A DNA stretch of 57,391 nt from Candidatus Micrarchaeota archaeon. GTDB lineage: Archaea; Micrarchaeota; Micrarchaeia; Anstonellales; Bilamarchaeaceae. Shown one piece after another: positions 23,919-43,500 of this stretch. Under the pieces are notes generated by a model that saw only the letters and a list, made by a program, of their open reading frames with translations, made no database searches and had not been told where the DNA came from. Made by a program: the position numbers and the translations under genes. Position 1 is the first letter of the stretch. Each line of letters starts with the position of its first letter. The stretch spans positions 1-57,391 of the forward strand of contig JAZDDV010000021.1 of assembly GCA_043809425.1 (NCBI GenBank), given 5' to 3'.

Positions 23919-24125
23919 ATGGTAAAAGTCATCACGATAATGGATGACGTATATTCGGAGTTGTACAAACTCAAGAAGGCCAAAGGCCTGAGCTTCACCG
24001 GCGCCATACGTCATTTGTTGAACGAGCGTACGACAAATGAACAGTCCATAATCTCCTTTGCAGGCAGCATATCAGAAGAGGATATAGACCGGCGTTCTGT
24101 TGCCAAGATAAGGCGGGTGCTGTAA
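23919..24125 (+). CDS. VapB-like antitoxin
   Basis: 68 aa, immediately upstream of a PIN gene with a TAATG stop/start overlap. An AAATTTAAATAC box lies about 30 nt upstream. Confidence 0.5.
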   Translation: MVKVITIMDDVYSELYKLKKAKGLSFTGAIRHLLNERTTNEQSIISFAGSISEEDIDRRSVAKIRRVL

Positions 24126-24496
24126 TGGAAAAAATATTCCTTGACTATCAGACTGCATTGGATTTTCTCCGGGGCGACCCGCAGATAGTGGAAAAACTCA
24201 ATTACTATGCTAATGTCGAGGAGATTTGCATCTCTTCGCTGACGCTTATGCATCTGCTTTTCACCATCAAAAAAAGCGAGGCCATACTTTCATTTGCAAA
24301 CAACGTTACTGTGCTGCCTATTGACAAAAAAGTGGGCATCATCGCATCGAAGATAAAACGGGAGCTAGATGAAAAGATGCTTGAGCTGCCGCAGGAAACG
24401 ATGATAACTGCCGCAGTATGCATGTCCAATGATGCATTTCTCTTCACTCGCAAACCAAGCGACTTCGAAGGAATAAAAGGGCTGAAAAGAGTTTAG
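24125..24496 (+). CDS. PIN-domain toxin (VapC-like)
   Basis: 123 aa with an N-terminal IFLDYQ acidic residue and a C-terminal FLFTRKPSDFEGI pattern, as in PIN nucleases. It is paired with the upstream antitoxin. Confidence 0.55.
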   Translation: MEKIFLDYQTALDFLRGDPQIVEKLNYYANVEEICISSLTLMHLLFTIKKSEAILSFANNVTVLPIDKKVGIIASKIKRELDEKMLELPQETMITAAVCMSNDAFLFTRKPSDFEGIKGLKRV

Positions 24497-27499: not shown

Positions 27500-30400
27500 T
27501 TATCTTTTCGTTACGCAACGATCCCTGGTGTCATGTATGTCACACACCAGGCCGTACTGTCTGCAGTCTATTTCTTCATACTTCACAGTGCCGTCTGGGC
27601 TGCTGCAGGTTGCCTCAATCAGGATGTTTTCATCCTTGCATTTGTCATAATATTTGACCTGATGCCCTGCTGGCCCGACAATGACTGGCTGCCTGCTGTA
27701 GAGCCAGCTGCCCCCCTGCAGGTTGGCATCTGTATCTGTGCAGTTGCCTGAAGGAATGTTGTCGCATTTTCCATCAAGACAGCCGCATGGCTCGTAATCA
27801 GCAGTAACTGGGTTCACGCACTCATAGGTGCTGCAGTCAACGATCTCATGGCCATAGGCCTGGCCGTTGAGTATGCAGGTCATCTCATCCAGCTTAACAA
27901 TATCCAGGCACTGGTCGCTTCTGGTCACCTTGTTGCCATTCTCGTCATCAAAGGTTATGGAGCCCTTTACGAACACCCCGTTATTTGGTTGGCCGTAATC
28001 GCTCTCAACGCAATTGAAGTTCTTATAGGCGCAGGCACCTCCGGTACCACCTCCGGAAAAACAGACGCACGGCCCTGTTGAGCCAGTGGTCGCGTCCGTG
28101 CAGGACTGGGCACCGCAGTCGACCTTTAGCTTCTCAATCTCGAAATTATCCTTGCAGGCAGCTTCTGAAAGCTCCGTGACACTATCGCAAGAATCATATT
28201 CCATGTAGCTTGGGAAACCTGCAAAGGTCGAATTGAAAATCCCTCTGGAAGGCTGGGTCACATCTGCATCAAAACAATAGGCATAGGCAGCGCTTTCATT
28301 GCAGGCGCTGTTGTTGCAATCGCAGGGAACGTAGACTGGCTTGGGTTGGCCGTTTTCGTCGCATCTCCATTCCTTCAGCATCTTACTCTTTTCCTGCTCG
28401 GTTCCGCCTGCCCCGTCCACGCAGAAGTCTTTGTAGACAGTTATGCTACTGCTTATTTGGTCCTTCATCAGCACAGTCGACGCCATAAAGATATCCTTGC
28501 CGCTTTTCATGAGCTCAGCATCGCGGTCATTGCAGCCAATGGCAACAGGCTTCAAATCACAGGAGCCGTTGGCACAAACGCAGGATTCATAGGCATCTGT
28601 GGGGCCCACACGGCAAGTGGACTTGGTGCAATCATAGGGCCTGATGAAAGGCTGGGAGCCAAATGGCGGAACATCGCGGCAAGCATACTCCTTAAGCATC
28701 GTAGAAGAGGAGCAGTTATCCGTATAGACTTTTTGAAGAAGAATCTGCAATGGGTCTGCCCCATAGACATTATAGACAACATAGGATTGGTAGAACATGT
28801 AATCCGGGCCAGGGTCATAGTCATTGCACTTTTCAGTCACCGCTGTAAAATCATAATCAAGTTCTGCCTTTTCAACAAGGTCCTTGGCAATCACAATCCC
28901 GCAGAATGGCGCGCCGGTTGCAATAAACGGATTAAGGATTCCGCAGTCCTGCTGCGGGTTCATGGTTGACGAGAAGATGACGGGAAGATTATTTGAAAGC
29001 TGGATCTGCTTGGCACTATAGGTATACCTGTTTCCGCTGCTCTCATTAAGGCAGCATTTTACAGGCAACGCTGCGATTATATCTGCATCAGCATCGCTAA
29101 GATTTGCAGTTGGATACAGTCTTTCATAGGTTTCTCCTGAACTGGCATTCCTGTAGGTGGCATTTGTCATGCCACTAAGCTGGGAACAAAGATAGCAGGC
29201 AGAAGATATCACATCCTTCGGGCATTGCTGGCCAGTTGTTCCTGCAATACAGATGGAACCATCATCGCAAATCATGTCCTGGGCAACACAGCCAAGTTCT
29301 TTCTGGCACTGGACACAGCGAATCTTGCCAGTTGCCTGGTCAATGGCAGGATTTGTCTCATTAACCGCGGCTACCCTTATTGTCATTTTTATCGGCTCGC
29401 CCTGGACAGCTGTACGGCTGCCAAGCTCAAATGCACAGAATTTGGGCCCAAAGGAAAACTGATTTTGCATCAAATTACTACCAACCGTACTACCTGTGCC
29501 CTCTACGCCGACATACTGAATGCCCATCACGCCAGCCTGCCTGAGAGCATCCTTGTTCTTGTAGAATTCAGTGAAAAAGTCCTGATAAAATGCTCTATCG
29601 TTTTCTGGGTCTGGCCAATTGCCGCCCTGTCTGACGTTCAGGAGCACAAGCACTGGCAGGGTGCCGGCGCCCTGAACTTTCTGTATTTCCAGTATTGCCT
29701 TTTTGGATTCGTTTGCAATATCGCTGGCAATGGTTGCTGCACGCTCGATGCTTGTCATTCTGGCCCATTGAAGACTTGCAACATTAGGGCCGACTACGCT
29801 GTTATTGCCCAAATCATAGCGAAGAACTAGAACTTTAGCGTTGTAAGCGAGCATCGGCTCATTCCAGCCTGTTGAGCCTATGGTCACTGCGGGAAGACAC
29901 TTGTCGCATTCAACCCGTACATCACCTAGCTTGTCAGCAGGGACGATTGTTATCACCGGACCAAGGTTATTTGGAAAGCCGCGGCTGTTGGTCGCATAGC
30001 CAGGTCCATATTCATTCTCCTGGTAATTAAGCATGTCCATCCGGTTTTCATAGTCAACTACTGGGATTACACCATTCTCAAGATAATTTATCATGCTTAC
30101 ATCCAAGGTTATTCTTGACTGGGAAGGCATATATTCCTCCTTACAGTAACTACCATAAACACCCATGCCAGGATTTTCTTCGCAATATTTCTTCTGGTCT
30201 TCTATGTTCTTGTCAAATGTCGAGCCGTTTTCATAGGCAAGCGTCTGGTAGGTGCAGGGCTCACACCAGCCGTATTCTTTTATCTCAGGAAGTTTGCCTT
30301 CATTGTCAAGCTTGCAGTCCCCGACGCTGTAAATTTCATAGAAATAGCGGGTGCGCAGTGCGTAAACAGTATTATACGCATTGTCGCCTGCAGAAGAGAT

Positions 30401-32524
30401 TTTATACCAGTCCTCGGGCTGCACTATTTTAATGTCTTCTGTGTCCTGCTGGCCATAGACATTCCGATTTTCAAGAAGGCGATAGGGCGCGCCAAGCACA
30501 AGGGGTATGTTTCCATAGGTGGAACGTTCATCTTCGATATTGATGTCCTCCTTGTTTTTGATGTAGGCCAGAACCCAGGGGCTTCCTGCCATTATTATGT
30601 CAAGATCGCCAACCTCCCGCTCGTCGCCGTCTGAATCTGTTTGAATATGCGTAAGCGCTTCCTTTGCTGCATCAAGGACAAAGAAGTCAAATACGCGCAG
30701 CGCAAAGCCATCATTGTAGTTTCTGACGTCGCGCTTTACATAGTCAACATCTTCCTGCATGTTGCAGTTTTTCACAAACTCCCAATCGCTTATGCTCTTA
30801 TCTGCAACAGCATAGCCGATTACACGCCTGCTGCCATCAGAAACGTCACGGCCAAAGAAATACATGTAGGCTGCAGGAGGATAGGGATTCTGGTCGCCTC
30901 CGCCGGCGAGATTTGTAGCATAACACATGCCACCGCCACCTTGGGTAAATCCTCCGGGGCATTTGCCATCATTTGATGCTACCCTGTTGGCATCAAAGCT
31001 TGTTGGAATCATCTCTATGGGATACCATGAGTCGCTGGGTATGAGGTAATCCTTTATGTTGTCTTCAGGGTACGCTCTTTCATCCGGAGTCCAATCAGTT
31101 GGGCCAAGCATCACCGAGCTTTCCTCTTTACTGCACCAGCCAGTTGGTTCACAACCAGAAGCCAGTGTTTCGGGTTGTGTTGCCTGATGCGCTGGGTTAT
31201 CGTTACAGAATAAACCTCTTCTGAATTGCCAGGCCTCAATCGCCAGTACGCCCAAATTATCTTCGCCTGAGCCCTCGCCGCAATCTCGAGACAATTCTTC
31301 CGTATCATAGGCATCTGAGTCAAGAACGTAGCGTGTTGGGTAGACATCCACAGAATCATAGGTGAGCTTAAGGCTATCACCGTCATGCGATACTTTTGTA
31401 ACCGGCAGACAGATCACGACCTTGTGTCCCTGCTGGAACTCAACATAGCAGTAGGAAGGCACCTCTGCATTGCTATCGTTTTTGATTGCAAAGCCGCGTT
31501 TGTAGGAATCCCGGCTGCAATAGGCCGAGAGGCATTCCGCGCCTCCGCATTCAAATGGCGCTGCCTTGTCTTCCTTGAACATGGTATCAAAATAGGAAGC
31601 TGAGAGTGCATTGGCATAATAGCCGGTGGAAGCGCCACCCCAGGGAAACAGCCTATAGCTTGTGAATTCTTCGTGCCAGTCATCATCAAGACCATAGAGG
31701 AAAGGATAAGTATTGCGGTCGACGGTGCCGGCCGTGGCATTGTCCAGGCAATCGCTTGGAGGAATAACATCCAGAGGTTTGTAATTCACATCATTATATA
31801 GCATGTCAGCATTGCAGTGCTCGGAATTGGCAGCGCAGGGCAGATAATAATTCATATACCTGTCAATGGAACCGCCACTGTTCAGACCGCAGAACTTGTC
31901 GCTGATGGGGAAATAATACTCGTAGGTGTTATACTCGTTAAAAGATGAGCCTGCACCGAAGCGAATGTTGTTTATGGCAACGCCAGAGCGTTTCATGATT
32001 TTCTTCAGCTCCTCATCCATCGCACGCATCCGACAATCAGCATGGTAGAGGTTTATGCTGATTTCCTGCGTCTGTATTGTTGGTCCGCCACCAGAACCCT
32101 CTTCCAGCTCTTCCTTTGTAGGCATTGGCGGAGGGAACCTTGGCCGGTAGAGGAAATCTCCGCAGACCATGGCAACGCAGTCAGGACGCACGCACTCCAG
32201 GTCTTTTTTCTCACCGCAGACAGGAACGACCATGTACTCTGTTACCGGTACGTCGAAGGTCTTTACTGTTCCGTCAGGCAGAACACGCGGTACTTTCATT
32301 GTTCCTTTATCAATGGCAATGGTGCATGTCCAGTTTGTCTTGTCACAGGATTCGGTGGTGTAGGAGTAAGTGGGGCTTTTGCTCAGAACGCATTTTCCTG
32401 TTCCGCTTGCCGGAAACGCCGCATCGCGCTCGCAGCAGGTTGTTTTCTCCGCCTCATTCAGACAGCCTGCCAGAAGCAGCAGGGAAATGAAGGCAGCTAG
32501 GAAAATAATCGTTGTTTTTTTCAT
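27500..32524 (-). CDS. giant secreted cysteine-rich protein (1674 aa), last gene of the membrane-paralog operon
   Basis: The signal peptide ends at a lipobox-like LLLAGC. Cysteine content is very high throughout. The C-terminal 443 aa consist of five tandem Cys modules. Its ATG overlaps the stop of the upstream gene (TAATG). Confidence 0.85.
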   Translation of the reverse strand: MKKTTIIFLAAFISLLLLAGCLNEAEKTTCCERDAAFPASGTGKCVLSKSPTYSYTTESCDKTNWTCTIAIDKGTMKVPRVLPDGTVKTFDVPVTEYMVVPVCGEKKDLECVRPDCVAMVCGDFLYRPRFPPPMPTKEELEEGSGGGPTIQTQEISINLYHADCRMRAMDEELKKIMKRSGVAINNIRFGAGSSFNEYNTYEYYFPISDKFCGLNSGGSIDRYMNYYLPCAANSEHCNADMLYNDVNYKPLDVIPPSDCLDNATAGTVDRNTYPFLYGLDDDWHEEFTSYRLFPWGGASTGYYANALSASYFDTMFKEDKAAPFECGGAECLSAYCSRDSYKRGFAIKNDSNAEVPSYCYVEFQQGHKVVICLPVTKVSHDGDSLKLTYDSVDVYPTRYVLDSDAYDTEELSRDCGEGSGEDNLGVLAIEAWQFRRGLFCNDNPAHQATQPETLASGCEPTGWCSKEESSVMLGPTDWTPDERAYPEDNIKDYLIPSDSWYPIEMIPTSFDANRVASNDGKCPGGFTQGGGGMCYATNLAGGGDQNPYPPAAYMYFFGRDVSDGSRRVIGYAVADKSISDWEFVKNCNMQEDVDYVKRDVRNYNDGFALRVFDFFVLDAAKEALTHIQTDSDGDEREVGDLDIIMAGSPWVLAYIKNKEDINIEDERSTYGNIPLVLGAPYRLLENRNVYGQQDTEDIKIVQPEDWYKISSAGDNAYNTVYALRTRYFYEIYSVGDCKLDNEGKLPEIKEYGWCEPCTYQTLAYENGSTFDKNIEDQKKYCEENPGMGVYGSYCKEEYMPSQSRITLDVSMINYLENGVIPVVDYENRMDMLNYQENEYGPGYATNSRGFPNNLGPVITIVPADKLGDVRVECDKCLPAVTIGSTGWNEPMLAYNAKVLVLRYDLGNNSVVGPNVASLQWARMTSIERAATIASDIANESKKAILEIQKVQGAGTLPVLVLLNVRQGGNWPDPENDRAFYQDFFTEFYKNKDALRQAGVMGIQYVGVEGTGSTVGSNLMQNQFSFGPKFCAFELGSRTAVQGEPIKMTIRVAAVNETNPAIDQATGKIRCVQCQKELGCVAQDMICDDGSICIAGTTGQQCPKDVISSACYLCSQLSGMTNATYRNASSGETYERLYPTANLSDADADIIAALPVKCCLNESSGNRYTYSAKQIQLSNNLPVIFSSTMNPQQDCGILNPFIATGAPFCGIVIAKDLVEKAELDYDFTAVTEKCNDYDPGPDYMFYQSYVVYNVYGADPLQILLQKVYTDNCSSSTMLKEYACRDVPPFGSQPFIRPYDCTKSTCRVGPTDAYESCVCANGSCDLKPVAIGCNDRDAELMKSGKDIFMASTVLMKDQISSSITVYKDFCVDGAGGTEQEKSKMLKEWRCDENGQPKPVYVPCDCNNSACNESAAYAYCFDADVTQPSRGIFNSTFAGFPSYMEYDSCDSVTELSEAACKDNFEIEKLKVDCGAQSCTDATTGSTGPCVCFSGGGTGGACAYKNFNCVESDYGQPNNGVFVKGSITFDDENGNKVTRSDQCLDIVKLDEMTCILNGQAYGHEIVDCSTYECVNPVTADYEPCGCLDGKCDNIPSGNCTDTDANLQGGSWLYSRQPVIVGPAGHQVKYYDKCKDENILIEATCSSPDGTVKYEEIDCRQYGLVCDIHDTRDRCVTKR
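27503..28831 (-). repeat. five tandem ~80-99-aa cysteine-module repeats within the giant protein
   Basis: Each unit begins C-x-[DE]-x-D (CNDYD, CNDRD, CFDAD, CVESD, CTDTD), followed by D-x-C, C, and [VIYP]-[DP]-C. Units 4 and 5 have identical Cys spacing (positions 1, 35, 46, 60). I count about 36 Cys in 443 aa. Confidence 0.7.
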
Positions 32525-33600
32525 TAGACCACCTTGGAAACCATGCGCAGTATGTCATAGGCCTCTTCGCCGAAAAGATACATGAAATATCTTATGGAGA
32601 CAATGGTAACAAAAAGCGCGACCAGCGGATGGATGAGCAGGGAGGTATAGGTTCTGCCAAGCTGCTGCCCGAGTCCTCCGCTTGAAGTCGAACCGGGGGC
32701 GCCGCCCTCCTCTTCGACAACATAGTTGACATAGGCAACTGCAGATGAATAGGTCGGGTAGCAGAAGTTTCCTCCTGTAATCGCAGGCCTGGGCTGCGCT
32801 GGCGGAAGCTTCACAAAACCCGGGTCGGTTACAATAAACACATAGGGAAACACAAGGTAAAAGCCAATTGCAATGGAGATGAAAAGCGAACCTATGGCGC
32901 GCGTTGGCTGGATGGCACGCAGCACAATGCCAACGGGAAGGAAAAGCGAAAGCATGTTTGCATCAATGTAGGAGAGGAAGAATATCTGGGCATTGAGAGC
33001 AATCAGTGCGTTTGTGGCAAAGGTGTTTATGAACCTGGCTGATTCCATGGCCTTGTAAAGATCGCTGACATAGGAACCGGAGAATACCGGGAAACCAAGA
33101 AGGTTGAAGTTGAGGTTCAGCAGATTGAAGTACCAGTTGGCATTGTTAACCATGTCAGCCTGAAGCTCCGCGATGCTGTTTGCCTTGTCCATGAGCTTGC
33201 ATTTTGCAACTGAAATGGCAGAATGGAAATCAGATGTGGGTATCACAATCTTGCCGCAGGAAACCGTACCGCTGATCATTTGATTCATCATTACTGTGGC
33301 GCCGCCGACTATGATAACGAAAAACACTATGAACACGACTGTTGCCATGGACTGGTACATCTCGGTTTTTGCAGAAGTCTCAAGCTCCCTGAGATTGAAT
33401 GCCTTCCCGATGCTATAGAGCGTGCCGTTGAATATCAATGCCACGAAAAGCGCAAGGGCAACAAACGGAAGCCAGGTCATCACACCAAAGACGTCCGCAA
33501 CAAACGTGCTGATCTGCTGCTGGGTGCTTTCCTCTGCCTGCGCTGCCGGCAGGAACAGTGCCAGAAGCAACAGCACCAGTACCAAACGTCTTGTATTCAT
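32524..33600 (-). CDS. polytopic membrane protein, paralog family member 6 (358 aa)
   Basis: Signal peptide, and the shared motifs NLRELETSAKTEMYQ, PVGIVLRAIQPTRAIGSLFISIAIGFYLVFP and a C-terminal FGEEAYDILRMVSKVV. Confidence 0.8.
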   Translation of the reverse strand: MNTRRLVLVLLLLALFLPAAQAEESTQQQISTFVADVFGVMTWLPFVALALFVALIFNGTLYSIGKAFNLRELETSAKTEMYQSMATVVFIVFFVIIVGGATVMMNQMISGTVSCGKIVIPTSDFHSAISVAKCKLMDKANSIAELQADMVNNANWYFNLLNLNFNLLGFPVFSGSYVSDLYKAMESARFINTFATNALIALNAQIFFLSYIDANMLSLFLPVGIVLRAIQPTRAIGSLFISIAIGFYLVFPYVFIVTDPGFVKLPPAQPRPAITGGNFCYPTYSSAVAYVNYVVEEEGGAPGSTSSGGLGQQLGRTYTSLLIHPLVALFVTIVSIRYFMYLFGEEAYDILRMVSKVV

Positions 33601-33602
33601 AG

Positions 33603-34688
33603 TTACACCATTTGCGATAGTTTGCTTAAATCTATCTCCTCACCATACATCCTTGCAAAGAATCTCACCGAAGCAATGGCCCCTGCCAGGGCCAGGCTCG
33701 GAAGCAGGAATGCCCCTACAAAGCTGCGGGCAGTAAGCTCAAGAACATCGAAAAAATCCCTTGGCTCATTATCAAAGAAATCATTCACGAGCCGAGTATC
33801 ATCTGTGTAGACAGAAGTGCCAAGCGCTCCGAAAACAGAGCCATAGCCAAACTCGCTCATGCCTGAAACTTCCTGGAATTTGTCCTTTTCCTTTGCGGCA
33901 TACTCCACGAAAAGCCCGGCATCCCCGGGCTTGTGGATACCCGGGTCATGGAAAATGTCTGCACCGCTGGAAACTATGGAAAACATGGAAAGCAGCAGCG
34001 GATAGACGATGAAGAAAGAAAGGCAGACGGCAATGAGCAGCGAGCCAAGCGGCCTCAGGTAGGGAAGCGAACGAACGATGATTGCGGCAGGAAGGAAGAA
34101 AATTATAAAACCGCGTACTGCAAAAAGGAAAATGAAAAGCGAGTTAAGCGCAGACATGAGATAGAATATGGTTGTGCCGAAAAGCATGTTCATCGTTCCC
34201 ATGCGACCGCCATAGTTTGCAAGCGAGGAGGAAATGGTCCCGCTGAAACCGAATACGCACCAGAGGTCGCAGTGAAATTGGTTTCTGTGCGACAGTATCG
34301 TATAGGCAGAGGCAAAATAGCGCACCACCCTTACCGTATTATGCGAATAGGAAACCGCATTTATAAGATAGTTATGGCCTTCCTCGAAAATGTTTGCCGC
34401 CCCGGTAGGCGGCTGGTCAACCAGCTCGCGCACGCTGTCCACATTAATACCGCAGAAGAAATTAATGCAGGTAAAGAGAAGCGCGATGGACATTATGGAG
34501 ATGACGACCTGAACAACTTCTGTCTTCACCCAGGCAAGCATTTTTGGGTTGTTGGTCACGGTTGCAAAGTAATATACCAGCACAAAAACTATGACTGCAA
34601 AAAATGTCGCGGTACCGGTGATCTGGAGAACCGGACCGTAGAGAAAGCCGTTCAGGAAGCTGGCCTGGCAGACGTCCACGATCATCAC
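33603..34688 (-). CDS. polytopic membrane protein, paralog family member 5 (361 aa)
   Basis: Shared motifs MLAWVKTEVVQ, PAAIIVRSLPYLRPLGSLLIAVCLSFFIVYP and a C-terminal YGEEIDLSKLSQMV. It has a 4-nt overlap with the upstream gene. Confidence 0.8.
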   Translation of the reverse strand: MMIVDVCQASFLNGFLYGPVLQITGTATFFAVIVFVLVYYFATVTNNPKMLAWVKTEVVQVVISIMSIALLFTCINFFCGINVDSVRELVDQPPTGAANIFEEGHNYLINAVSYSHNTVRVVRYFASAYTILSHRNQFHCDLWCVFGFSGTISSSLANYGGRMGTMNMLFGTTIFYLMSALNSLFIFLFAVRGFIIFFLPAAIIVRSLPYLRPLGSLLIAVCLSFFIVYPLLLSMFSIVSSGADIFHDPGIHKPGDAGLFVEYAAKEKDKFQEVSGMSEFGYGSVFGALGTSVYTDDTRLVNDFFDNEPRDFFDVLELTARSFVGAFLLPSLALAGAIASVRFFARMYGEEIDLSKLSQMV

Positions 34689-35698
34689 ATCAGCCTCCCC
34701 AGTGCACTGGCATCGATTTCAGCACCTGCTGCCATTGACAGGTACTTTATGCTTGTAGAAAATATGAACAGGTAGATGATGCTGAAAAGCGTGCCTTTCA
34801 CAAGAACAAGGAATAGTGGTTTTTTGATATGGGCAGCCATATCATTCAGAAGACCAAGCGCGGCATCATCATTGCTGCTAAGCCCGGTCATGCTGCCAAG
34901 GGAATTCGGAGTGTCACCTGGGCTGCATCCGGCGAATTTAGATTGGGGTTCTCCGATACTAAATGAGGGTGAGAGGAAACCAGTTTTAGAATTGAACTCG
35001 TCTAGGTAATTGTAGTCGCTATTCTTTTCCGCAAACGCGTCTGCCGTGGGGTCTATGAAAACAATTGACAGGGGCAGGATAAGGTAAAGCGCTGCACCGA
35101 TGGCAAGCAAAAGGCCGCCTGCTGCCCGGGTGATCTTGAATGTCCTGAGAATTATGCCTATGGGCATTATTATCGTAAGCGCAACATCCGAGATGCTAAG
35201 CAGGGTTTTGAGCGTGTTTAATTCCACGATGCCGATGCTGACCACTGTCTCGGTCGTCGTCACGGCAGGCGAAAGCGCTGAATAGCCGCCGCAGCCAGAC
35301 ATTGTAACCGTGATCATCATTATGTTGCAGGAAAGGGTTTTGGAACCTTCAATCGATACCTTCTCAAGTTCGGTAAGTTTGGTAAAGTATGCCTGCAGCA
35401 TCGTAATGTCTGTGCTTATCTTGGCCTTGGCATCGCTTTGCAAAGTATCTCCAACCGTAACTGTCAGGCCTGCGAATACGCTCAGCATCACTATGAGAAA
35501 CGCAATCTGGTAGACCTCGTCTTTTGCAGTTATCTGAAGCTCCTGGATACCGAAACCCATGCCCACTGCATAGAGAATGGCAATGAATACAACTGCTGCA
35601 ACTATGGCTATGGCGGCAGTGGTCATCCAGCTGCCTGCCGCAAATGATAGCGAGGAAAGCAAAATCACTGCCAGCAGGATTATTTGGATTCTCATCAT
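34685..35698 (-). CDS. polytopic membrane protein, paralog family member 4 (337 aa)
   Basis: Signal peptide, with motifs IQELQITAKDEVYQ, PIGIILRTFKITRAAGGLLLAIGAALYLILP and a C-terminal AGAEIDASALGRLM. It has 4-nt overlaps on both sides. Confidence 0.8.
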   Translation of the reverse strand: MMRIQIILLAVILLSSLSFAAGSWMTTAAIAIVAAVVFIAILYAVGMGFGIQELQITAKDEVYQIAFLIVMLSVFAGLTVTVGDTLQSDAKAKISTDITMLQAYFTKLTELEKVSIEGSKTLSCNIMMITVTMSGCGGYSALSPAVTTTETVVSIGIVELNTLKTLLSISDVALTIIMPIGIILRTFKITRAAGGLLLAIGAALYLILPLSIVFIDPTADAFAEKNSDYNYLDEFNSKTGFLSPSFSIGEPQSKFAGCSPGDTPNSLGSMTGLSSNDDAALGLLNDMAAHIKKPLFLVLVKGTLFSIIYLFIFSTSIKYLSMAAGAEIDASALGRLM

Positions 35699-37821
35699 AA
35701 CACCTTTGCCAGGCCAGGTATCTCTATATCGCCGCCGAGCATCTTTGAGAAAGATCTGATGAACATCACCACCACAAGTGTGTTGAAGATTGGGAGAAGG
35801 TAGGCAGGAACCATGAGTTTCGCAACGTTTATCACCTCTGGTTTTCCAACATTTCCTTCAATTATTGTTGAGAAACCAGCCTCACCCCCCTTCGGCTGAG
35901 GCGACTTGGAACAAACCGTTGGGCAATCAACCCTTAGGGGCGGGTCGTAAAGGTAGGCCTCTTCAGCCACCGCGCACCTAACACAACCCTCGGGGTCACT
36001 CGGGTAGTAATAGACGCAAGACTCAAGGGGATCGGCTATGTTAACCGGACAGGAATAGGCATTGTCGCATTTTTCATGGGCAAGGTCTGATGCCGCCTCA
36101 ACGATGTCTACCTTTTCCAAGCCGCGCAGGCCTGGCAACACAACTCTGCAATCAAAACGGGAATAAAGGCAATTATAGCCAGTGACCGCTTCCCTATACT
36201 GGTGACTCAGGAACTCGGAATAGGAATCAGGATCAGTTGCCTCCAGATCACTACTGCATACGCCGAGGAAATTGGCATCGCCCTTGCAGGATGTGTAATG
36301 ACCTGGTGCCTGGGAAGTGACCTCGTCGCTTACCCAATAACCCGCCAGAGGATGATAGAAATTCCATGAACCGATATAATCGCAATTGCTCTTAAGCGCT
36401 GGTTTTATCTTGCATGCTGTCGGGCAGTTTGCCATTTCGGTAGTTTTTATCTGGTATTCGGCGGGTTTGGACGAATCTATGGGAACAAACCTGTAAAGTT
36501 TGCAATCCTGGCGAAGCCAGCTGCACGCCCTTTGCACATCCTTGCTTCCGCAAAGAGGCGAACCATAGGGGTAGGGAAGTTCGCGGCATTCTGCCGGACA
36601 GACAACTGGCTTTGTAAAATCGATTTTGAGATTGCCGTCCTTATCATAGCTGTAAGGGCTTGCATCTCCCCCTGTGAGCGAAGGAGTCATGGCAAGCCAT
36701 TGACAGGACTGGAAAACGTCTCCGTTCGGAGCTGTAACTTCAGGAACCCGGCCGCTTGCAAGGTCGTCGGCCCACCCTGTTGCATACTGGCTGCAGCCTG
36801 AAGCCGAAAGGGCGTTAACAAGGTCGTTTTGCAAAAAGTACTGCTCACCGGAAGACGGGTCTATGAACCCCCTGTTGCCGGCTCCGGCGACAGGTTCAAT
36901 CTTTGGGACGATTGTGCCCTTATAGGCATAGGGCGCTTTAAGCGCGCATTCTTCAGGGCAGTCCGCACCACCGGCGGCGAAAAGCTTATCGCCATAGAGC
37001 GTAAGCTTCAGCGAAGCCATGTCAAACACGTACATCATTGGCATGGCAAACATTATGCCAAAGGCAATGGCAATCAGCAGGCCGCCAAGCTTGCGCGAAA
37101 AGAAAAATGAGCGCAGGAATATTCCGAAAACGAGAATGAGCGGACCGACGTTGAAGGCGAATTTTTCCATGAAAAATTTCTGCGCGTTCATGGATGCGAG
37201 AAGGTTCTGGTACTGCTCAAACACAACACCGTGGCGCTCTGCATCCAGAAGAGACTCGGCACCGGTTGTGAATGAAAGCGATGCCTGGAGACAGGGCCAT
37301 GGCAGGATCATCGCGGAGCAGGAGGTTGTGAAACGCCGGCTGGCGTCCTCCAGGCTGTCAACCATTGTGTTAAGCGACTCCTTGGCACCTTGTTTGGAAA
37401 CGTCAATCATGTTCTGCAGGTAAACAGTCGTAACAGTCTGCATGCAGTCATCGCCGCAGTTTGCGAGCGCATCTATGCGGCTGCTCTTTGCTATTTCCAC
37501 AAGGGCGACATTTGTTGCGGTTAGGACGCTAACGGCAACAACAACGATTATGGCTGTTGCGATGACCTGCGAGAGCTCTGTTGTTGCCCAGCTCTTCAAG
37601 TCAGGCATGTCAAAGCCGATGGAAAGGGCATAGACAAGGGCGATTAAAACAATGGAGAAACCAATGACGAGCAGGATGGCTGACTGCCAGTTGCCTATCA
37701 AACGTTTTGATTCCTGGATGAATTTTGGTTCTGACGAATCTCCCGGGTTCGTGGTGCAGCTCACCGCGTAGACCGAGGAAACGAAGAAAATGAGCAGCAG
37801 CAGTAATGCAAGTTTTCTCAT
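35695..37821 (-). CDS. polytopic membrane protein, paralog family member 3 (708 aa) with ~390-aa Cys-rich ectodomain insertion
   Basis: Signal peptide, with motifs MPDLKSWATTELSQ, FGIFLRSFFFSRKLGGLLIAIAFGIMFAMP and a C-terminal LGGDIEIPGLAKVL. The insertion at about aa 271-660 has four CPxxC motifs (CPEEC, CPAEC, CPTAC, CPTVC). Confidence 0.8.
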   Translation of the reverse strand: MRKLALLLLLIFFVSSVYAVSCTTNPGDSSEPKFIQESKRLIGNWQSAILLVIGFSIVLIALVYALSIGFDMPDLKSWATTELSQVIATAIIVVVAVSVLTATNVALVEIAKSSRIDALANCGDDCMQTVTTVYLQNMIDVSKQGAKESLNTMVDSLEDASRRFTTSCSAMILPWPCLQASLSFTTGAESLLDAERHGVVFEQYQNLLASMNAQKFFMEKFAFNVGPLILVFGIFLRSFFFSRKLGGLLIAIAFGIMFAMPMMYVFDMASLKLTLYGDKLFAAGGADCPEECALKAPYAYKGTIVPKIEPVAGAGNRGFIDPSSGEQYFLQNDLVNALSASGCSQYATGWADDLASGRVPEVTAPNGDVFQSCQWLAMTPSLTGGDASPYSYDKDGNLKIDFTKPVVCPAECRELPYPYGSPLCGSKDVQRACSWLRQDCKLYRFVPIDSSKPAEYQIKTTEMANCPTACKIKPALKSNCDYIGSWNFYHPLAGYWVSDEVTSQAPGHYTSCKGDANFLGVCSSDLEATDPDSYSEFLSHQYREAVTGYNCLYSRFDCRVVLPGLRGLEKVDIVEAASDLAHEKCDNAYSCPVNIADPLESCVYYYPSDPEGCVRCAVAEEAYLYDPPLRVDCPTVCSKSPQPKGGEAGFSTIIEGNVGKPEVINVAKLMVPAYLLPIFNTLVVVMFIRSFSKMLGGDIEIPGLAKVL

Positions 37822-38804
37822 GCGAACGCCCTCAGAGCCTTGTTAATGGCAGACATGAATGTCACTATCAGCGCTATGGAAAGATTGGGCAGGAAAAACG
37901 CCATGGGCAGGATTTTTCCGACATCCCAGAGCGAAACCCCAAAACCCGTTGAATCGCAAACAGGAGCGCCAAGTTCTGTGTTGATTGGCTTATCCTCAAG
38001 AATGCCCTGGTAGGAGGTGCAGTCTGCCAGCGAGATTGAATCATACATCAAAAAGCTGAAGTTTACGAAGAACGGCAGCAGAGCATAGAAAGCAATGCAG
38101 AGCGCAATCAGCAGGTTGCCGCTGTTTCTTGTGGGCGGAAAAAAACGGAGCAGGAACGCAGCAGGAAGGATAAATTTTATTACGAATTCCTTTGTAAACT
38201 GGAGCATCAGGCTTTGGATTGAAATGCTCACCAGCGCGGGGATGGCATAGGTATTGGAAAGGGTCTCGAGCTGCATTGCATAGACCTTTTTGTAGGCCTC
38301 CATCATTGTCGTGAAGGTGCCTTCAAGTATCGCTCCGGCGGTGTAGGCCCAGCCAGAATCCATTGTCATTTTTATCTGGCCATCGACATAGAAGGAAATC
38401 ATGGAGGCTGTTTTTGCCTGAAGCGTTTTTGTGCAGGAGATCGCGTTGTCGACTGGGCCAAAGGCTGAAGAATAACACGTGCCGGTGACAGGGAAATTGC
38501 TGCGGGAAAGATCTATCAGTTCGGTGGAAAGCAGACAGGAAAAACCGACAAGGCTTGCAAAAGTCACCAGCAGCGCAATTGAAATCGCAAGATGATAGGC
38601 CTCGTCTTTTGCAAGCATGCTGAGCTGTGCATTGTGAAAACCGGTTCCAAAAACATAGGCAATGGTGATTCCAAGAACCGAGATCGCTATGAGAACATAG
38701 AGAAGGGTGGCCTGGTCTCCAAGAATGTCTGCAGTGGTGACCAGGCAGGACTGGGCAAAGGCAATGAATGAAAACAGTAAAAGTGCCAATAGTATTTTTC
38801 TCAT
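37818..38804 (-). CDS. polytopic membrane protein, paralog family member 2 (328 aa)
   Basis: Signal peptide, with motifs NAQLSMLAKDEAYH and PAAFLLRFFPPTRNSGNLLIALCIAFYALLP. Its C-terminus diverges (no GGE motif). Confidence 0.8.
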   Translation of the reverse strand: MRKILLALLLFSFIAFAQSCLVTTADILGDQATLLYVLIAISVLGITIAYVFGTGFHNAQLSMLAKDEAYHLAISIALLVTFASLVGFSCLLSTELIDLSRSNFPVTGTCYSSAFGPVDNAISCTKTLQAKTASMISFYVDGQIKMTMDSGWAYTAGAILEGTFTTMMEAYKKVYAMQLETLSNTYAIPALVSISIQSLMLQFTKEFVIKFILPAAFLLRFFPPTRNSGNLLIALCIAFYALLPFFVNFSFLMYDSISLADCTSYQGILEDKPINTELGAPVCDSTGFGVSLWDVGKILPMAFFLPNLSIALIVTFMSAINKALRAFA

Positions 38805-40021
38805 ATCAACCTCTCCATTCCTGAGATATAGGCTTCGCCGCCAAGTGCAACGGCCACAGACCTGGTTGCTGTCACAGTCATCAGCCCTATGAGCAAGACG
38901 TCAATGTAGGATATGACCACAAGCGAATTGACCTGGTAGAGGAAATCAAACACTGCCTCATAGGCGGCATCAACACTAAAGCCTGCACCGGCAGAGGCAA
39001 GAATTTGGTCAAGGGCAAGAAGCCCGATGCTTGTTACGGTGCCAAAGAAGGCGACCATAAGCTGGTAAATCCAAATGCTGAGGAAGAAACAAACTTCGAA
39101 AAACGGGCCGCAGGGGATTGACTGGATGGTGGCATAGATGATTTCGCCCATGGAAAGCAGGACGCGGATTACAGGATATTCGCAGATGGACTCTATTATT
39201 GTATTGGCATTGTACTTTGGCGGAGAAACCGCGTCAAGGTCCAGGGTTGGAACCTCGATGCCTCCCATCTGGCCGTGGAATATGCTTATGATGATAATCG
39301 AAAGGGGAAAGAACAGGTAGACGCCAAGGGAAATGGCGATGAGCGTGGTGCCGACCTGCCTTGAAAATGGAATGACCCTTAGTATGAAACCCAGGGGCAA
39401 CAGCACCGAAAGCCCATAGGCCTTGAAAAAGGCAAGCAGCACGCCTATTGATTCATAGATAAGAATCACGTTTATCAGGCCGCTGGCGCCTGCCTGAAGC
39501 GCCGAGCTAAGCGGGTAGAGGCCGCCATAGCGCGTAAAGCCATAGCCGAACATAAGTAGGAAACCAAATGAGTAGGAAACGCCATAGGTTGATACCGCAC
39601 GAAGACGGCTCATCCCCTTGATGACGTATTCGTAGGCAGTCACCGCGGCTGCCTGCTGCTCTGCGACGGTTGAAGCAGCATAGTCAAAATAATCAGCGCT
39701 CTGCGAAACGACCTGTTTCTCTGCAAGCGCAGACGTTATGATTTCCACAATATAACCCGATGCCCCTACCACCGAGATTACGATTGCCAGCAGCAGTATG
39801 GCTGCTATGAGCTCGCGCGTCTCAATCTTTACCCAGGCATCAAGCTGGGGCATGGAAAAGGAAACCGCCGCCATCTTTGTAGCCGCAAGCATTATTACAA
39901 CAAGCATAACGACAACGGGGAATGCCTTGAAATAATCAGACTGCAGAAAATCATCAGCAGATATTGAAAAAACTAAAGGCGCAAGTAGCAGCAAGAACAG
40001 TGGGATAAGCGACAGGCGCAT
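38801..40021 (-). CDS. polytopic membrane protein, paralog family member 1 (406 aa from ATG 40021), first gene of operon
   Basis: I chose the ATG at 40021 (MRLSLIPLFLLLLAPLVFS signal peptide) because an ATTATATAC TATA box lies 30 nt upstream. The 467-aa ORF-track version would run through the promoter and into the divergent gene. Motifs: MPQLDAWVKIETRE, PLGFILRVIPFSRQVGTTLIAISLGVYLFFP and a C-terminal LGGEAYISGMERLI. Confidence 0.75.
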   Translation of the reverse strand: MRLSLIPLFLLLLAPLVFSISADDFLQSDYFKAFPVVVMLVVIMLAATKMAAVSFSMPQLDAWVKIETRELIAAILLLAIVISVVGASGYIVEIITSALAEKQVVSQSADYFDYAASTVAEQQAAAVTAYEYVIKGMSRLRAVSTYGVSYSFGFLLMFGYGFTRYGGLYPLSSALQAGASGLINVILIYESIGVLLAFFKAYGLSVLLPLGFILRVIPFSRQVGTTLIAISLGVYLFFPLSIIIISIFHGQMGGIEVPTLDLDAVSPPKYNANTIIESICEYPVIRVLLSMGEIIYATIQSIPCGPFFEVCFFLSIWIYQLMVAFFGTVTSIGLLALDQILASAGAGFSVDAAYEAVFDFLYQVNSLVVISYIDVLLIGLMTVTATRSVAVALGGEAYISGMERLI

Positions 40022-40116
40022 AGCAAAAGATACGGCCAGAATGTATATAATCTTTCTGTTGATCTGAAGCGGCGGCAGGCATAATGATTTAAATTTGAAG
40101 CAGTCCAAATTCATAC
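40022..40116. promoter_or_regulatory. 95-bp bidirectional promoter region between the membrane-paralog operon and the 1127-aa gene
   Basis: The minus-strand TATA ATTATATAC (40043-40051) is 30 nt from the ATG at 40021. The plus-strand TATA TTTAAATT (40088-40095) is 29 nt from the ATG at 40117. Both transcripts would be leaderless. Confidence 0.55.
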
Positions 40117-43100
40117 ATGAAAAGGCTATTGTTCGCATTGCTTCTAATTGGTGTGTTGCTTGCACAGGAATGCCCTGAATGCAAGCAGGTTGCCACATTC
40201 CCAAAATCCAAGCTTGTCAGCGTGATGGATGAGCAACAACATCTGATAAGGGTATTTCTGATTAATGATACTATAAATAGGGAAAGGCTGGCAAATGCAA
40301 CCCTGATAGTATATATCTATAATGAAAGCTTTGGCGATTTTGAAAAAATCTACAGTGATAACAATGGAACTGCCTTTTATGATTTTTCAGACCATATGAA
40401 AGACTGCAGGCAGTACAAGTTTATCTATTGCTACTGCCCGACAGGAACAGGATGCCTGCTGAGCCACTGCCTAAACGCAACAGGAGTAACTGTTGGAACT
40501 TTGCCTACAGACATAAACAGCATAAAAGAGGGCAAATCTCCTGTGCCAGCACCTGCAGCGATAGCGCACCCGGCAAACCTGCCGTCTTTTGACATCCAGG
40601 CCTACTGTCCGCCGCCCGAAACAGGGTTGGGGGTTCCGACTTTCTGCATCCCTCTTGCAATACTCTTTGCAATGCTAAGCGGGGCAATGTATGCAAGCGG
40701 AAGAAACCCGTTTCAGGGATTTGACATGTCTGGCCTGCGCAGCGGCAGACACATAAAATACGAGGCCCGCGGAAGAGGCGCCGGCTTTGATTTTTCACAG
40801 CACCTTATGGCTGCAGGAATGCAGGTCGGGATGTATGCTGCGGCAACTGCAGTGGCAGGCGTAGCTGCGGCTGGAGGAAAGGCTGAGTTTGCTAAAGACG
40901 TTAGGGACTACAGGGGTGGTGCAGCAGACATGGGAAAAAGGGCAGGTCTTGCTGTTCTTGGCCCTGGAATTTCAAGGCTCGTTATGGATTATGGCAGGGT
41001 AAAAGGAAAGCAGGCACAGATGCAAGCAGAGGCAAACAAGGCACCAAAGCATGGATTATGGAGTAAACAAGCTGAAAAGATAGGCTTCTGGGGTGCACGC
41101 GGGGCAGCAGAAAGCGACTATTGGAAAGGCATCAGCATCTCTGATAAAAGAAAGGAGCTTGCGGAGAAGCAGGAGATGGGCCGAACAGGATCTGAAGCAG
41201 GCGTAAAAACCGGATTCTGGTCTCCTGCAGGAGTTGTCCTGGCAGGAATTTTCGAATCAAGCATTTTCGGAAGGGCTTACATGAGCGTTCCGACAATGGA
41301 TGTTGCAGGCGCAAAGCAGATTGCACGCGATAGCAAGGAAGTTGAAAAACAAAAAGGAGAAGGGCAGCAACAGGAACAGATGGGACAACGCCTGGGTTAT
41401 GATCTTTTTAGTATCTTCGGAGTAAAAAGAAGCGATTTTGAAAACAAGGGCAACATGAATCGTGCGCAGGCGGCTTACCAGAATCAAAAATTACAGGAGC
41501 TGGCAACCAAAACCGGAGCAACTATTGTTACTTTCAAACAACCTGGCCAGCCAGATGGTATAGCACTCCAATACGTGGTCAAAGGTGCAGACGGAAAAAA
41601 CGTAAATATTTACTGTGAATTCAGGCAAACAGAAAGAGGCATGGAACCAAGATTCATGCTGGTAGACTCACAGGGCAAAATAAGTAACATTGAAACAGTA
41701 TATGAAAGGGGTAAAGGAACCATAGACGGTCATGGTGTAGAAATAGCTCGTGCTAAAGTCGGAGAGTATGATGCAATTATAGGAGGAAAAATCATAAAAC
41801 AAGCGATGATGGACGACATTGTAAAGGTCGATGGAAAACTCATTTATGACCCAATGCAAAAACAGGAAATAATCCAGAAGGCAAAAATCACTGAGGGAGA
41901 TATCGTAGGCCTAACGTTAACTGGCACTACTCTGCAGATTGGAAAACCAGGAGAGGTAGGCACCAAGGGAGATGTGCTTGGTCTTTTTAAGGGGGGAGAA
42001 GCAGCCCTAAATGATGCGCTTAAGAATGGCAGCGATATGGGAGCTGCAAAACTACAATACAACGAAGCAATATATTTAGTTAAACAGGCTCTTGAGACAC
42101 AAGCAGTGGAAGAGAGAAAGGATGAAATTGGAAAACAGAAGCAACAGCTGGAAAAGGATTTGCTTCAGAATACCCCAGAACAAAAACTCTGGGTCAGTTT
42201 AAAAGAAGAAGGAGAAGCGCAGGAGCACATAAAGGAAGCGAATAAGGCTAAGGCAGCTGCAGACCAGGCAAGGGCAGCGGGCGATGCCGATACGGCTGCT
42301 GCATACATAAAGGTTTACAAGGAAAACATTGCTGAAGCACAGAAACACTTGGATGAGTCTGCCAAGCACATGCAGATGTATGGTGACCGAGTACTTCAGA
42401 CACATGGCGATTCGATAACTTTACAGACAATAGATGCTGTGGCAGTTAGAACACAGCAGCAGATGGGCCAGCTTGACCTACAACTGGCTGCTGGAGCTAT
42501 AAGTAAAATGACCCATGAGGATGAGATGGCTAACCTGGAGAATCGCATGGAAAAACTGAGACAATCACAGGAAGCAGTACAAGCTAATCTAGAGAATACG
42601 GGCACCATAGTTGCAATCTATAGAAATGTTGAGGGGATTGCTAAGGAAGCTGGAGTAGACACTAGTGCAGCTGCACGCACTGGTATTGTTTCCACCGCAG
42701 TCCATGAAAAAGCTTACGAGCAAACGACAGGATTTTTAGAAGAAGCCCAGCAGAGAGTCCAGGCAGCCAGGGAAGACCTTGATAAAAGATTCAAAGAAGG
42801 AAAATTAGATCTGGATGGTTACAGGCACGAGACAGAGAGAATGAATAAAACTGAAGATGATCTGACTAGGATGCAAAGGGACACGAAAAGGATCGAAGAA
42901 AATGCAAGCAGGGTGCCGCCGCACGTGCAACAAGAATACCTGGCGCAGATGCATGAGCATTTTGTGAAGACCAATGCTCCTACAGTGGTGGCAGTTTCAG
43001 AGGCCTACCAAACCACAACAACGGCAAAGGAACTTTATGGCAATGCCAGTAGAATTGATAACGCGGTAATACTTGCCAAGGAAGACTCAGTTGGCCAAGG

Positions 43101-43500
43101 AATGGCAATTCTGAATCATGCAAATCGCGACGGAGCAGATTTCGCTGCACCAAAAACAGGAGGACCGAGTTATTTTGCCGCAATGATTTACGAACGTGAG
43201 CTGCAGAGAATGAACGAAACAGGAGACCCTGCGGAGTATCAGAAGATCCACTCAAACCTCATGCAAACAAGCCTTTTGGCGCAATATGCTGCTGAAGGCG
43301 GGAAACAGGCAAAGATGGTAGATGAAGCCCTAAAAGATTCCTACAGAATGCTGAATGAAAGGGAACAAGTCAAAGGAGAAAGGGAAGCTGCCAAGGAGCA
43401 GGATGAGGAAATCAAGAGGACGCATGCAGAAGAAAGGGCAAGGAAACAAGCGGCGATGAACGAGGCTGCAAGAAAGATGAGGCACGGGCCAAAAGACTGA
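40117..43500 (+). CDS. membrane-anchored giant coiled-coil protein (1127 aa)
   Basis: The signal peptide is followed by CPEC, a CarboxypepD_reg-like beta domain with Cys cluster (about 150 aa in total) and a TM helix at about aa 172-194 (VPTFCIPLAILFAMLSGAMYASG). About 930 residues then follow, including a Gly/Ala-rich hydrophobic patch, a beta-rich domain and a long Glu/Lys/Ala/Gln coiled coil from about aa 640. Confidence 0.8.
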   Translation: MKRLLFALLLIGVLLAQECPECKQVATFPKSKLVSVMDEQQHLIRVFLINDTINRERLANATLIVYIYNESFGDFEKIYSDNNGTAFYDFSDHMKDCRQYKFIYCYCPTGTGCLLSHCLNATGVTVGTLPTDINSIKEGKSPVPAPAAIAHPANLPSFDIQAYCPPPETGLGVPTFCIPLAILFAMLSGAMYASGRNPFQGFDMSGLRSGRHIKYEARGRGAGFDFSQHLMAAGMQVGMYAAATAVAGVAAAGGKAEFAKDVRDYRGGAADMGKRAGLAVLGPGISRLVMDYGRVKGKQAQMQAEANKAPKHGLWSKQAEKIGFWGARGAAESDYWKGISISDKRKELAEKQEMGRTGSEAGVKTGFWSPAGVVLAGIFESSIFGRAYMSVPTMDVAGAKQIARDSKEVEKQKGEGQQQEQMGQRLGYDLFSIFGVKRSDFENKGNMNRAQAAYQNQKLQELATKTGATIVTFKQPGQPDGIALQYVVKGADGKNVNIYCEFRQTERGMEPRFMLVDSQGKISNIETVYERGKGTIDGHGVEIARAKVGEYDAIIGGKIIKQAMMDDIVKVDGKLIYDPMQKQEIIQKAKITEGDIVGLTLTGTTLQIGKPGEVGTKGDVLGLFKGGEAALNDALKNGSDMGAAKLQYNEAIYLVKQALETQAVEERKDEIGKQKQQLEKDLLQNTPEQKLWVSLKEEGEAQEHIKEANKAKAAADQARAAGDADTAAAYIKVYKENIAEAQKHLDESAKHMQMYGDRVLQTHGDSITLQTIDAVAVRTQQQMGQLDLQLAAGAISKMTHEDEMANLENRMEKLRQSQEAVQANLENTGTIVAIYRNVEGIAKEAGVDTSAAARTGIVSTAVHEKAYEQTTGFLEEAQQRVQAAREDLDKRFKEGKLDLDGYRHETERMNKTEDDLTRMQRDTKRIEENASRVPPHVQQEYLAQMHEHFVKTNAPTVVAVSEAYQTTTTAKELYGNASRIDNAVILAKEDSVGQGMAILNHANRDGADFAAPKTGGPSYFAAMIYERELQRMNETGDPAEYQKIHSNLMQTSLLAQYAAEGGKQAKMVDEALKDSYRMLNEREQVKGEREAAKEQDEEIKRTHAEERARKQAAMNEAARKMRHGPKD

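Follow-up and report, generated by a model that had tools for sequence, protein, structure and literature searches.

A conserved, undescribed eight-gene envelope module of Micrarchaeota with six ordered membrane paralogs related to a subunit of conjugation-like clusters

Introduction

Which genes encode the apparatus by which a Micrarchaeota symbiont attaches to its host or exchanges material with it? This is a long-open question for the DPANN archaea, and in Micrarchaeota no genes have yet been linked to such a symbiont-side apparatus (PMC8975820, PMC11329633). The question is raised in concrete form by a locus on a contig of an NCBI metagenome-assembled genome (MAG) labelled Candidatus Micrarchaeota archaeon (locus tags V1492_019xx). 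In the 57-kb stretch of DNA that was analysed as a whole, called the window below, seven coupled genes for membrane and secreted proteins (g1 to g7) stand beside an eighth gene (g8) transcribed away from them. A first-pass annotation, made from the letters alone, had proposed that they could form an undescribed envelope apparatus in a reduced-genome archaeon, and the label of the MAG makes the organism a DPANN archaeon. We find that the eight genes are a real, robustly conserved and undescribed envelope gene set, that they probably encode a cell-surface machine, and that six of their products are homologous to a membrane subunit of conjugation-like gene clusters. Phylum-wide, operonic, wholly unannotated and located in the envelope, the module is a concrete candidate for the symbiont-side apparatus.

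An eight-gene layout conserved across Micrarchaeota

The first-pass annotation had described seven translationally coupled minus-strand genes divergent from a gene for an 1127-residue protein, and the listing and translation of the open reading frames (ORFs) reproduced this gene map exactly. On the minus strand, the operon opens with g1 (38801..40021), coding for a polytopic membrane protein of 406 residues with a signal peptide, and continues with the paralogous genes g2 (37818..38804; 328 residues), g3 (35695..37821; 708 residues), g4 (34685..35698; 337 residues), g5 (33603..34688; 361 residues, as in NCBI entry V1492_01955, with a GTG start and no signal peptide) and g6 (32524..33600; 358 residues). 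The last gene of the operon, g7 (27500..32524, minus strand), encodes a giant secreted protein of 1674 residues with 83 Cys. On the plus strand, g8 (40117..43500) is separated from g1 by a spacer of 95 bp (40022..40116). Overlaps of 4 nt join g1/g2, g2/g3, g3/g4 and g4/g5, a gap of 2 nt lies between g5 and g6, and g6 and g7 overlap by 1 nt. Besides the ORFs themselves, the assignments rest on paralogy (g1 to g3, g5, g6), a structural model and an orthologue alignment (g4), and orthologues in other genomes (g1 to g3, g5 to g8).

To see how widely this layout is found, one genome per GTDB species was scanned with an alignment of g4 orthologues as query, which gave 49 loci, nearly all labelled Micrarchaeota. 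The loci were annotated with local hidden Markov model and phmmer searches, and 31 complete arrays of the paralogs were seen. The eight-gene layout recurs in ~37 species-level genomes of Micrarchaeota with differing flanks; the first-pass annotation had allowed that the neighbourhood might be conserved nowhere and be an accident of one lineage, a prospect that fails decisively. All 31 complete arrays have the order g1-g2-g3-g4-g5-g6, and each position, from position 1 onwards, is orthologous to the same window paralog, the best and second-best paralog scores lying widely apart (e.g., 194 vs 26 bits). The genomes that carry the arrays are deeply diverged (~20-35% identity), and the chromosome OY970229.1 has the array as well. 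Gene junctions in 28 arrays are mostly of -4, -1 or 0-3 nt, and g7 directly follows g6 in nearly all arrays. The position of g8 separates two clades: in one it is divergent and upstream of the array, as in the window, and in the other (L029-L037, L041) it is co-directional and immediately downstream of g7. A Bilamarchaeaceae locus repeats the window's layout, with a 1078-residue gene product encoded divergently from genes for 425, 323, 683, 320, 347, 328 and 1507 residues, and the same layout was seen on two more metagenomic or MAG contigs, whose long family matches are g3 orthologues of 1265 and 1683 residues.

Because the paralogs are orthologous one-to-one by position across genomes with different flanks, the sixfold duplication is ancient and every paralog has been retained. 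This is a rare case of an ancient, strictly ordered sixfold paralog set. As seen from these gene orders, the fixed succession of the paralogs and the two independent arrangements of g8 are strong comparative evidence for one multi-subunit complex, and the one-to-one orthology fits non-redundant subunits of a hetero-oligomer.

Some loci depart from this scheme. In L054, a metagenomic contig, a downstream gene for 1824 residues, presumed to be g8, overlaps g7 by 4 nt, and directly upstream of the array and divergent from it (L054:6319-7585) are a Thioredoxin_4/DsbA-like gene and a PadR regulator. The DsbA-like gene, which is absent beside the window's array, could be relevant to oxidative folding of Cys-rich ectodomains. 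The divergent arrays L038:303-11682 ('uncultured archaeon LFW-35') and L044:1-11558 (a Micrarchaeia MAG) lack g7, and their six family members do not pair off individually with g1-g6; both have a long, divergently transcribed upstream gene, g8-like in L038 and coding for 1370 residues in L044. These two arrays suggest that the core of the module is the six paralogs with g8 and that g7 is a later addition. Two partial arrays (g3 to g7) occur in one MAG (L009 and L019; JBDRIM010000038.1 and JBDRIM010000005.1), which points either to two copies of the module in that genome or to a bin of mixed origin.

The gene set was said in the first-pass annotation to be undescribed, and database searches upheld this. 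Scans of all eight proteins against Pfam, NCBIfam and PHROGs gave nothing significant, and PDB sequence searches with the paralog profile, with g7 and with a 29-member g7 profile were empty. A word-indexed homologue search returned three matches for the paralogs and seven for g7, every named relative of either being a Micrarchaeota 'hypothetical protein', and an exact-protein look-up of g6 returned no record. The family had no matches in viral contigs (by scan) or in plasmids (by tblastn). In the 1.84 billion representatives searched with the six-paralog profile, 2845 clusters at 50% identity were found at E<=1e-3 and 200 at E<=1e-30, which defines a large new membrane-protein family of ~2800 such clusters.

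The absence of known transport machinery was likewise upheld. The module proteins have no match to ATP-binding cassette (ABC), major facilitator superfamily (MFS), resistance-nodulation-division (RND), Sec or YidC domains in Pfam, NCBIfam or PDB. Parts of type IV pili or archaella (PilB/ArlI, PilC/ArlJ) have no Pfam match among them, and the N-termini are Sec-type signal peptides or carry a lipobox and are not of class III. No ATPase was found in the cluster, no integrase, relaxase or ATPase was found near it, and no P-loop family was present among the Pfam-scanned ORFs that flank the cluster and lie in the 5' part of the window.

Six paralogs of a five-helix membrane family

The products of g1 to g6 had been read as polytopic members of one family, and the comparison of their sequences confirmed it. 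BLASTP aligned 14 of the 15 pairs over ~220-330 residues (E 5e-20 to 6e-6), g4/g5 being the exception with a 26-residue match at E 8.8. In a multiple alignment, E67, R215, R221, G224 and P239 (g1 numbering) are invariant, and all six share the motif LPxGxxLRxxPxTRxxGxLLIA; their C-terminal tails are conserved too, as R...G(G/E)E.(D/Y). Hydropathy indicates a signal peptide, except in g5, and about five transmembrane (TM) segments per protein. By these sequence criteria, g1-g6 are true paralogs of one five-TM membrane family.

The subunit chosen for modelling was g4. Its AlphaFold2 model, made with a 65-sequence family alignment (mean predicted local distance difference test score, pLDDT, 85; predicted template modelling score 0.78), is all-helical, with TM helices that run far beyond the membrane (H52-82, H85-118, H143-185, H191-228 and H276-323). 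The tip of the resulting extracellular helical bundle is a beta-hairpin (residues 121-134), flanked by Cys124 and Cys136, both invariant among g4 orthologues. The paralogs are predicted to have the N-terminus outside, five TM segments, of which the second and third are linked by a large loop, and the C-terminus inside. We orient them in this way by their signal peptides, by the Cys richness of their loops and by the turn between TM3 and TM4, which is rich in Arg. Between TM4 and TM5 lies an insert that is variable and often rich in Cys. It is extreme in g3, where a Cys-rich ectodomain of ~400 residues is placed in the five-TM core; in the protein as a whole there are 28 Cys, and CPxxC occurs four times (CPEEC, CPAEC, CPTAC, CPTVC). 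Orthologues of g3 span 645-1683 residues, and the 29 that were surveyed (645-890 residues) have 22-50 Cys and 2-8 CPxxC motifs.

Foldseek searches with the g4 model against PDB returned a best E of 0.32 and template modelling scores of at most 0.24, the top, non-significant matches being designed helical proteins and TTYH channels. Against BFVD nothing was significant, and a phage protein annotated as TrbL stood at rank 6 (E 0.86, template modelling score 0.25). The model does resemble TTYH channels in that five TM helices extend into a long, disulfide-stabilised extracellular bundle with the N-terminus out and the C-terminus in. However, these matches are not significant (E 0.3-1.4, template modelling scores 0.15-0.21), TTYH proteins are eukaryotic, and we do not claim a relationship.

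A single-copy relative in conjugation-like clusters

The most informative homologues of the paralogs were found outside the arrays. At 11 of the 49 loci (L040, L042, L043, L045-L052), a single family member of ~345 residues stands in a different context that is conserved among these loci, as exemplified by L046:8909-16799. The order is a 102-158-residue protein, the family member, a 246-residue protein and an ATPase of 354-465 residues, and seven of the 11 loci have a second, HerA/CedB-like ATPase of ~750 residues. The 102-158-residue protein has a signal peptide and two hydrophobic helices and matches the Pfam families T4SS_pilin (nine loci; PF18895, best E 5e-7) and TrbC/VirB2 (five loci; PF04956); judged by these profiles, it is a VirB2-type pilin. 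Against NCBIfam, the ATPase matches CedB best (8e-22), followed by CedD and VirB4/TraC, all under the curated equivalog cut-offs. It also matches HerA and VirB4 structures in PDB, including the VirB4 entry 4ag5, and tblastn with it matched 1027 plasmids, 967 of them typed as conjugative.

The single-copy proteins carry the family motifs, and their alignment with the six window paralogs by hhalign had a probability of 99.35% (E 5.7e-21, 294 columns). This shows, at the level of sequence profiles, that the paralogs are homologous to the membrane subunit of a conjugation-like cluster. The first-pass annotation had recognised no tie to a known secretion system. This stands for direct family matches, of which there are none, but not for gene context, since the single-copy member occupies the position of CedA, TedA or VirB6 in a cluster with a VirB2-type pilin and a VirB4-type ATPase.

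The comparison with the archaeal Ced and Ted systems is instructive. These consist of a VirB2-like pilin (CedA1/TedC), a VirB6-like polytopic channel (CedA/TedA) and a VirB4-like ATPase (CedB/TedB), with negligible sequence identity between the systems (PMC9905601). As CedA, TedA and VirB6 are each the polytopic protein encoded with a pilin and a VirB4-like ATPase, the new family sits in the VirB6/CedA slot. The single-member loci resemble Ced and Ted in running pilin, polytopic protein, small protein and ATPase, and also in having no recognisable sequence similarity to the components of the characterised systems, as is the case between Ced and Ted. The Ced genes run in the order cedA1-cedA-cedA2-cedB. 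An NCBIfam scan of the single-copy proteins gave nothing relevant. A relationship of the pilin to the N-terminus of the channel is reported for CedA1/CedA and VirB2/VirB6; hhalign of our pilin against the N-terminus of the family (E 0.038, 1.4% probability) was too weak for use. The window module differs from Ced and Ted in having six paralogs instead of one, no pilin or ATPase within 10 kb, and two proteins, g7 and g8, with no counterpart there.

It appears, then, that Micrarchaeota have a Ced-like or type IV secretion system (T4SS)-like cluster that is apparently undescribed, with the new family filling its polytopic channel slot. These clusters may be the same as the islands described as conjugative elements in Mia14 (PMC5498576). 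The isolate name series FK, YF and MAS recur among the 11 loci. Adjoining the cluster in L046, on the minus strand (L046:16834-19749), is an RtcB tRNA ligase gene that contains an intein (Pfam RtcB and Intein_splicing).

The giant exoprotein and its bitopic partner

The seventh protein of the operon had been described as secreted and Cys-rich, which holds and can be refined to a predicted lipoprotein. Its signal peptide ends in a lipobox (LLAG-C21), and all 29 orthologues have a hydrophobic h-region and, after it, x-G-C, with G20 and C21 invariant. The window's g7 aligns with its Bilamarchaeaceae orthologue over 1230 columns at 29% identity (E 8e-121). Within ~1200 conserved residues, the 29 orthologues share more than 30 Cys without, or almost without, exception. 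Since the signal peptide ends in a lipobox, g7 is predicted to be a lipid-anchored exoprotein stabilised by disulfides or metal. An AlphaFold2 model of residues 1-1200 (7-sequence alignment) was unusable (pLDDT 36).

The Cys-rich C-terminal repeat region of g7 varies in length among orthologues. In the last ~440 residues (27500-28830), about five repeats of ~90 residues with the pattern C-x-D-x-D ... C ... C-x-C were seen by eye; a BLASTP self-comparison of g7 reported none of them. That g7 might be a surface layer (S-layer) protein was also considered, and was ruled out by its 83 Cys; it has no S-layer Pfam domain. The Micrarchaeota S-layer protein SLP_Mh has almost no sulphur amino acids (10.1101/2021.04.28.441871).

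The protein encoded by g8 has a signal peptide, a Cys-containing ectodomain of ~170 residues, one TM segment at about residues 173-195, a cytoplasmic motif and ~900 charged residues; nine of its ten Cys fall within the first 177 residues. Conservation is restricted to the first ~225 residues, and the remaining ~900 are poorly conserved. The conserved ectodomain has six invariant Cys and begins with a CxxC motif (CPEC at the mature N-terminus, within 40117-40200). A basic juxtamembrane motif, (S/T)G(R/K)NPFxGF...RxG(R/K)HI(R/K)YxA(R/K)GRG, is conserved on the cytoplasmic side. The first-pass annotation was right about the ectodomain and the single TM helix of g8 and had also proposed a long cytoplasmic coiled coil. 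Residues 640-1127 are charged and poor in Pro and Gly, which is compatible with a helical or coiled-coil form, and the sole PDB sequence match is a myosin coiled-coil chimera at E 0.46. A disulfide or metal role for the CPxxC motifs of g3 and the CxxC motif of g8 would matter in organisms of anoxic habitats.

What the module might do

The reading that we prefer, and that we consider to have an even chance of being correct, is that a T4SS/Ced-type membrane subunit was multiplied sixfold into a hetero-oligomeric envelope platform of putative function. The six paralogs, made in a fixed ratio from one translationally coupled mRNA, would assemble into a channel or platform in the cytoplasmic membrane, and their extended helices would build a stalk that is capped by disulfides and points to the S-layer. 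Farthest out, facing the exterior, would be the lipid-anchored g7 and the Cys-rich g3 ectodomain, and the bitopic g8 would use its conserved basic motif beside the membrane to connect the platform with the cytoplasm. Such a machine, either needing no ATPase of its own or drawing on one from another locus, could be used for contact-dependent attachment to a partner cell and/or transfer of macromolecules or metabolites, a use that parallels the T4SS-derived systems of other reduced-genome symbionts.

Several precedents are known in bacteria, and our search of the literature found no paper on a VirB6-like or comparable module in DPANN. The obligate intracellular Anaplasma has tandem VirB6 paralogs with huge extensions (PMC7648143), and in Bartonella one and the same genome encodes several TrwI proteins of the Trw system. 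One patescibacterium cannot grow as an epibiont without its T4SS, VirB6 included (PMC12102498), and the Micrarchaeota module is tied by evolution to this type of machinery, on which epibiotic life depends in the analogous Patescibacteria. The likeness to Anaplasma and other Rickettsiales and to Bartonella lies in the tandem multiplication, in the very large extension of one paralog (g3, up to 1683 residues) and in the reduced-genome, host-dependent organisms concerned. Unlike the module, however, the bacterial VirB6 expansions go together with retained genes for VirB4 and further T4SS parts, in many cases next to them, and none of these was found at the arrays; the expansions are also lineage-specific amplifications, whereas Micrarchaeota have six strictly ordered, orthologous paralogs throughout the phylum. 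The family further resembles VirB6 in its predicted topology, polytopic and N-out, with five TM segments, a large extracytoplasmic loop between TM2 and TM3, and a cytoplasmic C-terminus. Jakubowski et al. reportedly arrived in 2004 at this same topology for VirB6.

A number of results weigh against this reading. Homologues of the pilin, the 246-residue protein or either ATPase were not found in the window or within 10 kb of the ~37 arrays. Array-bearing and single-bearing assemblies share no member in our sample, as far as the incompleteness of MAGs and narrow search patterns allow this to be seen, so the mode of action of the array may be quite unlike that of a T4SS. The single-copy proteins are equidistant from all six paralogs, so that the array may derive from the T4SS subunit or the reverse. 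Neither the six paralogs nor the T4SS-linked singles match VirB6/TrbL (PF04610) in Pfam or NCBIfam. The family alignments compared by hhalign with a 20-sequence TrwI/VirB6 profile gave probabilities of 0.7% and 0.2%, the profile being shallow, with no member less than 51% identical to TrwI, and leaving room for very remote homology, and the single TrwI sequence gave no signal. Lastly, Foldseek against PDB detected no fold similarity of the g4 model to a solved VirB6 (e.g., TrwI of the R388 T4SS), with no VirB6 chain among the top 50.

A bolder version, which we regard as doubtful, sees in the module an envelope-spanning machine of a categorically new kind, which works without an ATPase and serves the symbiont in host contact and cytoplasmic exchange. 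It would consist of a hetero-hexameric ring, a disulfide- or metal-stapled g7 cap and a cytoplasmic coiled-coil anchor, the ring paralogs being either descended from or ancestral to the channel subunit of a conjugation-like system in archaea.

The module could also be a structural scaffold of the envelope with no part in transport, although we think this unlikely. The paralogs would then be membrane stalks that anchor or space the S-layer, with g7 as a pseudo-periplasmic lipoprotein and g8 as an internal brace. S-layers of Sulfolobales are anchored by stalks of the SlaB type, and the stretching of the TM helices of the g4 model into a long extracellular bundle would suit such a role, as would the lack of an ATPase nearby and the occurrence of the module as a single-copy chromosomal core feature among housekeeping genes. 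A gene for a surface protein with Laminin_G, NosD and beta-helix domains also lies 6 kb away in the window. Moreover, how the Micrarchaeota S-layer protein is anchored is explicitly described as unknown (PMC8975820; 10.1101/2021.04.28.441871). Yet the only informative homologue stands in a pilin/VirB4-ATPase cluster and not beside S-layer genes, the S-layer gene is not syntenic at the other loci, and g7 with its 83 Cys is unlike S-layer proteins. An anchor also has no obvious need for six conserved, non-redundant paralogs, invariant cytoplasmic Arg residues and a conserved cytoplasmic tail.

Many of the results that weigh against a T4SS-derived platform would instead favour a channel or uptake system that is hetero-oligomeric and self-contained, moves small molecules, lipids or ions and has no functional relation to T4SS; the same membrane fold would then have been recruited independently by the T4SS-like cluster. 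There is no sequence or fold similarity to VirB6, no ATPase or pilin lies near any array, and arrays and T4SS-linked singles are in different genomes of the sample. Micrarchaeota have few recognisable transporters and are thought to draw metabolites and lipids from their hosts (PMC8975820), and a pore or gate could be lined by the invariant Glu by TM2 together with the invariant Arg residues of the turn from TM3 to TM4. We nevertheless find such a channel quite improbable, as a transporter rarely requires six paralogs, a 180-kDa disulfide-rich lipoprotein and an 1100-residue cytoplasmic partner, and no transporter family was matched in Pfam, NCBIfam or PDB. Hardly credible at all is that the module is an accident of one lineage or the cargo of a mobile element (an integrated conjugative element, for instance) and plays no core role in the cell. 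The relatives in acid-mine Micrarchaeota do stand in conjugation-like clusters, and the genomic islands of Mia14 contain membrane proteins and putative conjugative elements (PMC5498576). Synteny largely refutes the idea, however: the order and one-to-one orthology are the same in 31/31 arrays of deeply diverged genomes, the flanks are housekeeping genes that differ between genomes, no integrase, relaxase or ATPase is nearby, and viral contigs and plasmids gave no matches.

The spacer and the surrounding genes

The 95-bp spacer between g1 and g8 had been reported to hold two outward-facing TATA boxes at leaderless spacing, and both can be read in the sequence. On the side of g1 the box is TATATAAT at 40044-40051, its centre ~26 nt from the g1 ATG in the minus-strand reading; on the side of g8 it is TTTAAAT at 40089-40095, its centre ~25 nt from the g8 ATG. 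Both fit the spacing of archaeal TATA boxes on leaderless mRNAs and are putative promoters. The NCBI entry for g1 (V1492_01975, hypothetical protein) is 29 codons longer, with 435 residues over 38801-40108, and its start would leave just 8 bp ahead of the g8 ATG. We prefer the start at the ATG at 40021, giving 406 residues, because the orthologues have ~400 residues and the signal peptide begins there; the deposited start is probably 29 codons too far upstream.

The genes around the module are those of an ordinary chromosome, Pfam identifying GyrA, FtsZ, MsrB, HisG, HisRS, an MFS transporter and an aminotransferase. The possibility that the cluster is itself a mobile element was ruled out by these housekeeping flanks and the absence of an integrase. 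Rfam and tRNA scans of the window gave no matches. DNA gyrase subunit A is encoded at 412-2832 (plus strand), a PIN-domain protein at 24125-24496 (plus strand) and FtsZ at 22646-23737 (minus strand). FtsZ is close to the module in the window and absent from its vicinity in other genomes, so this proximity is not conserved. A plus-strand gene at 17482-21798, 6 kb from the module, encodes 1438 residues; to judge from the Laminin_G_3, NosD/right-handed beta-helix and CarboxypepD_reg domains of its product, this may be a surface protein, an adhesin or a protein of the S-layer type. The published S-layer protein of Micrarchaeum is said to have a copper-binding-like domain too, and laminin-G proteins are enriched in DPANN.

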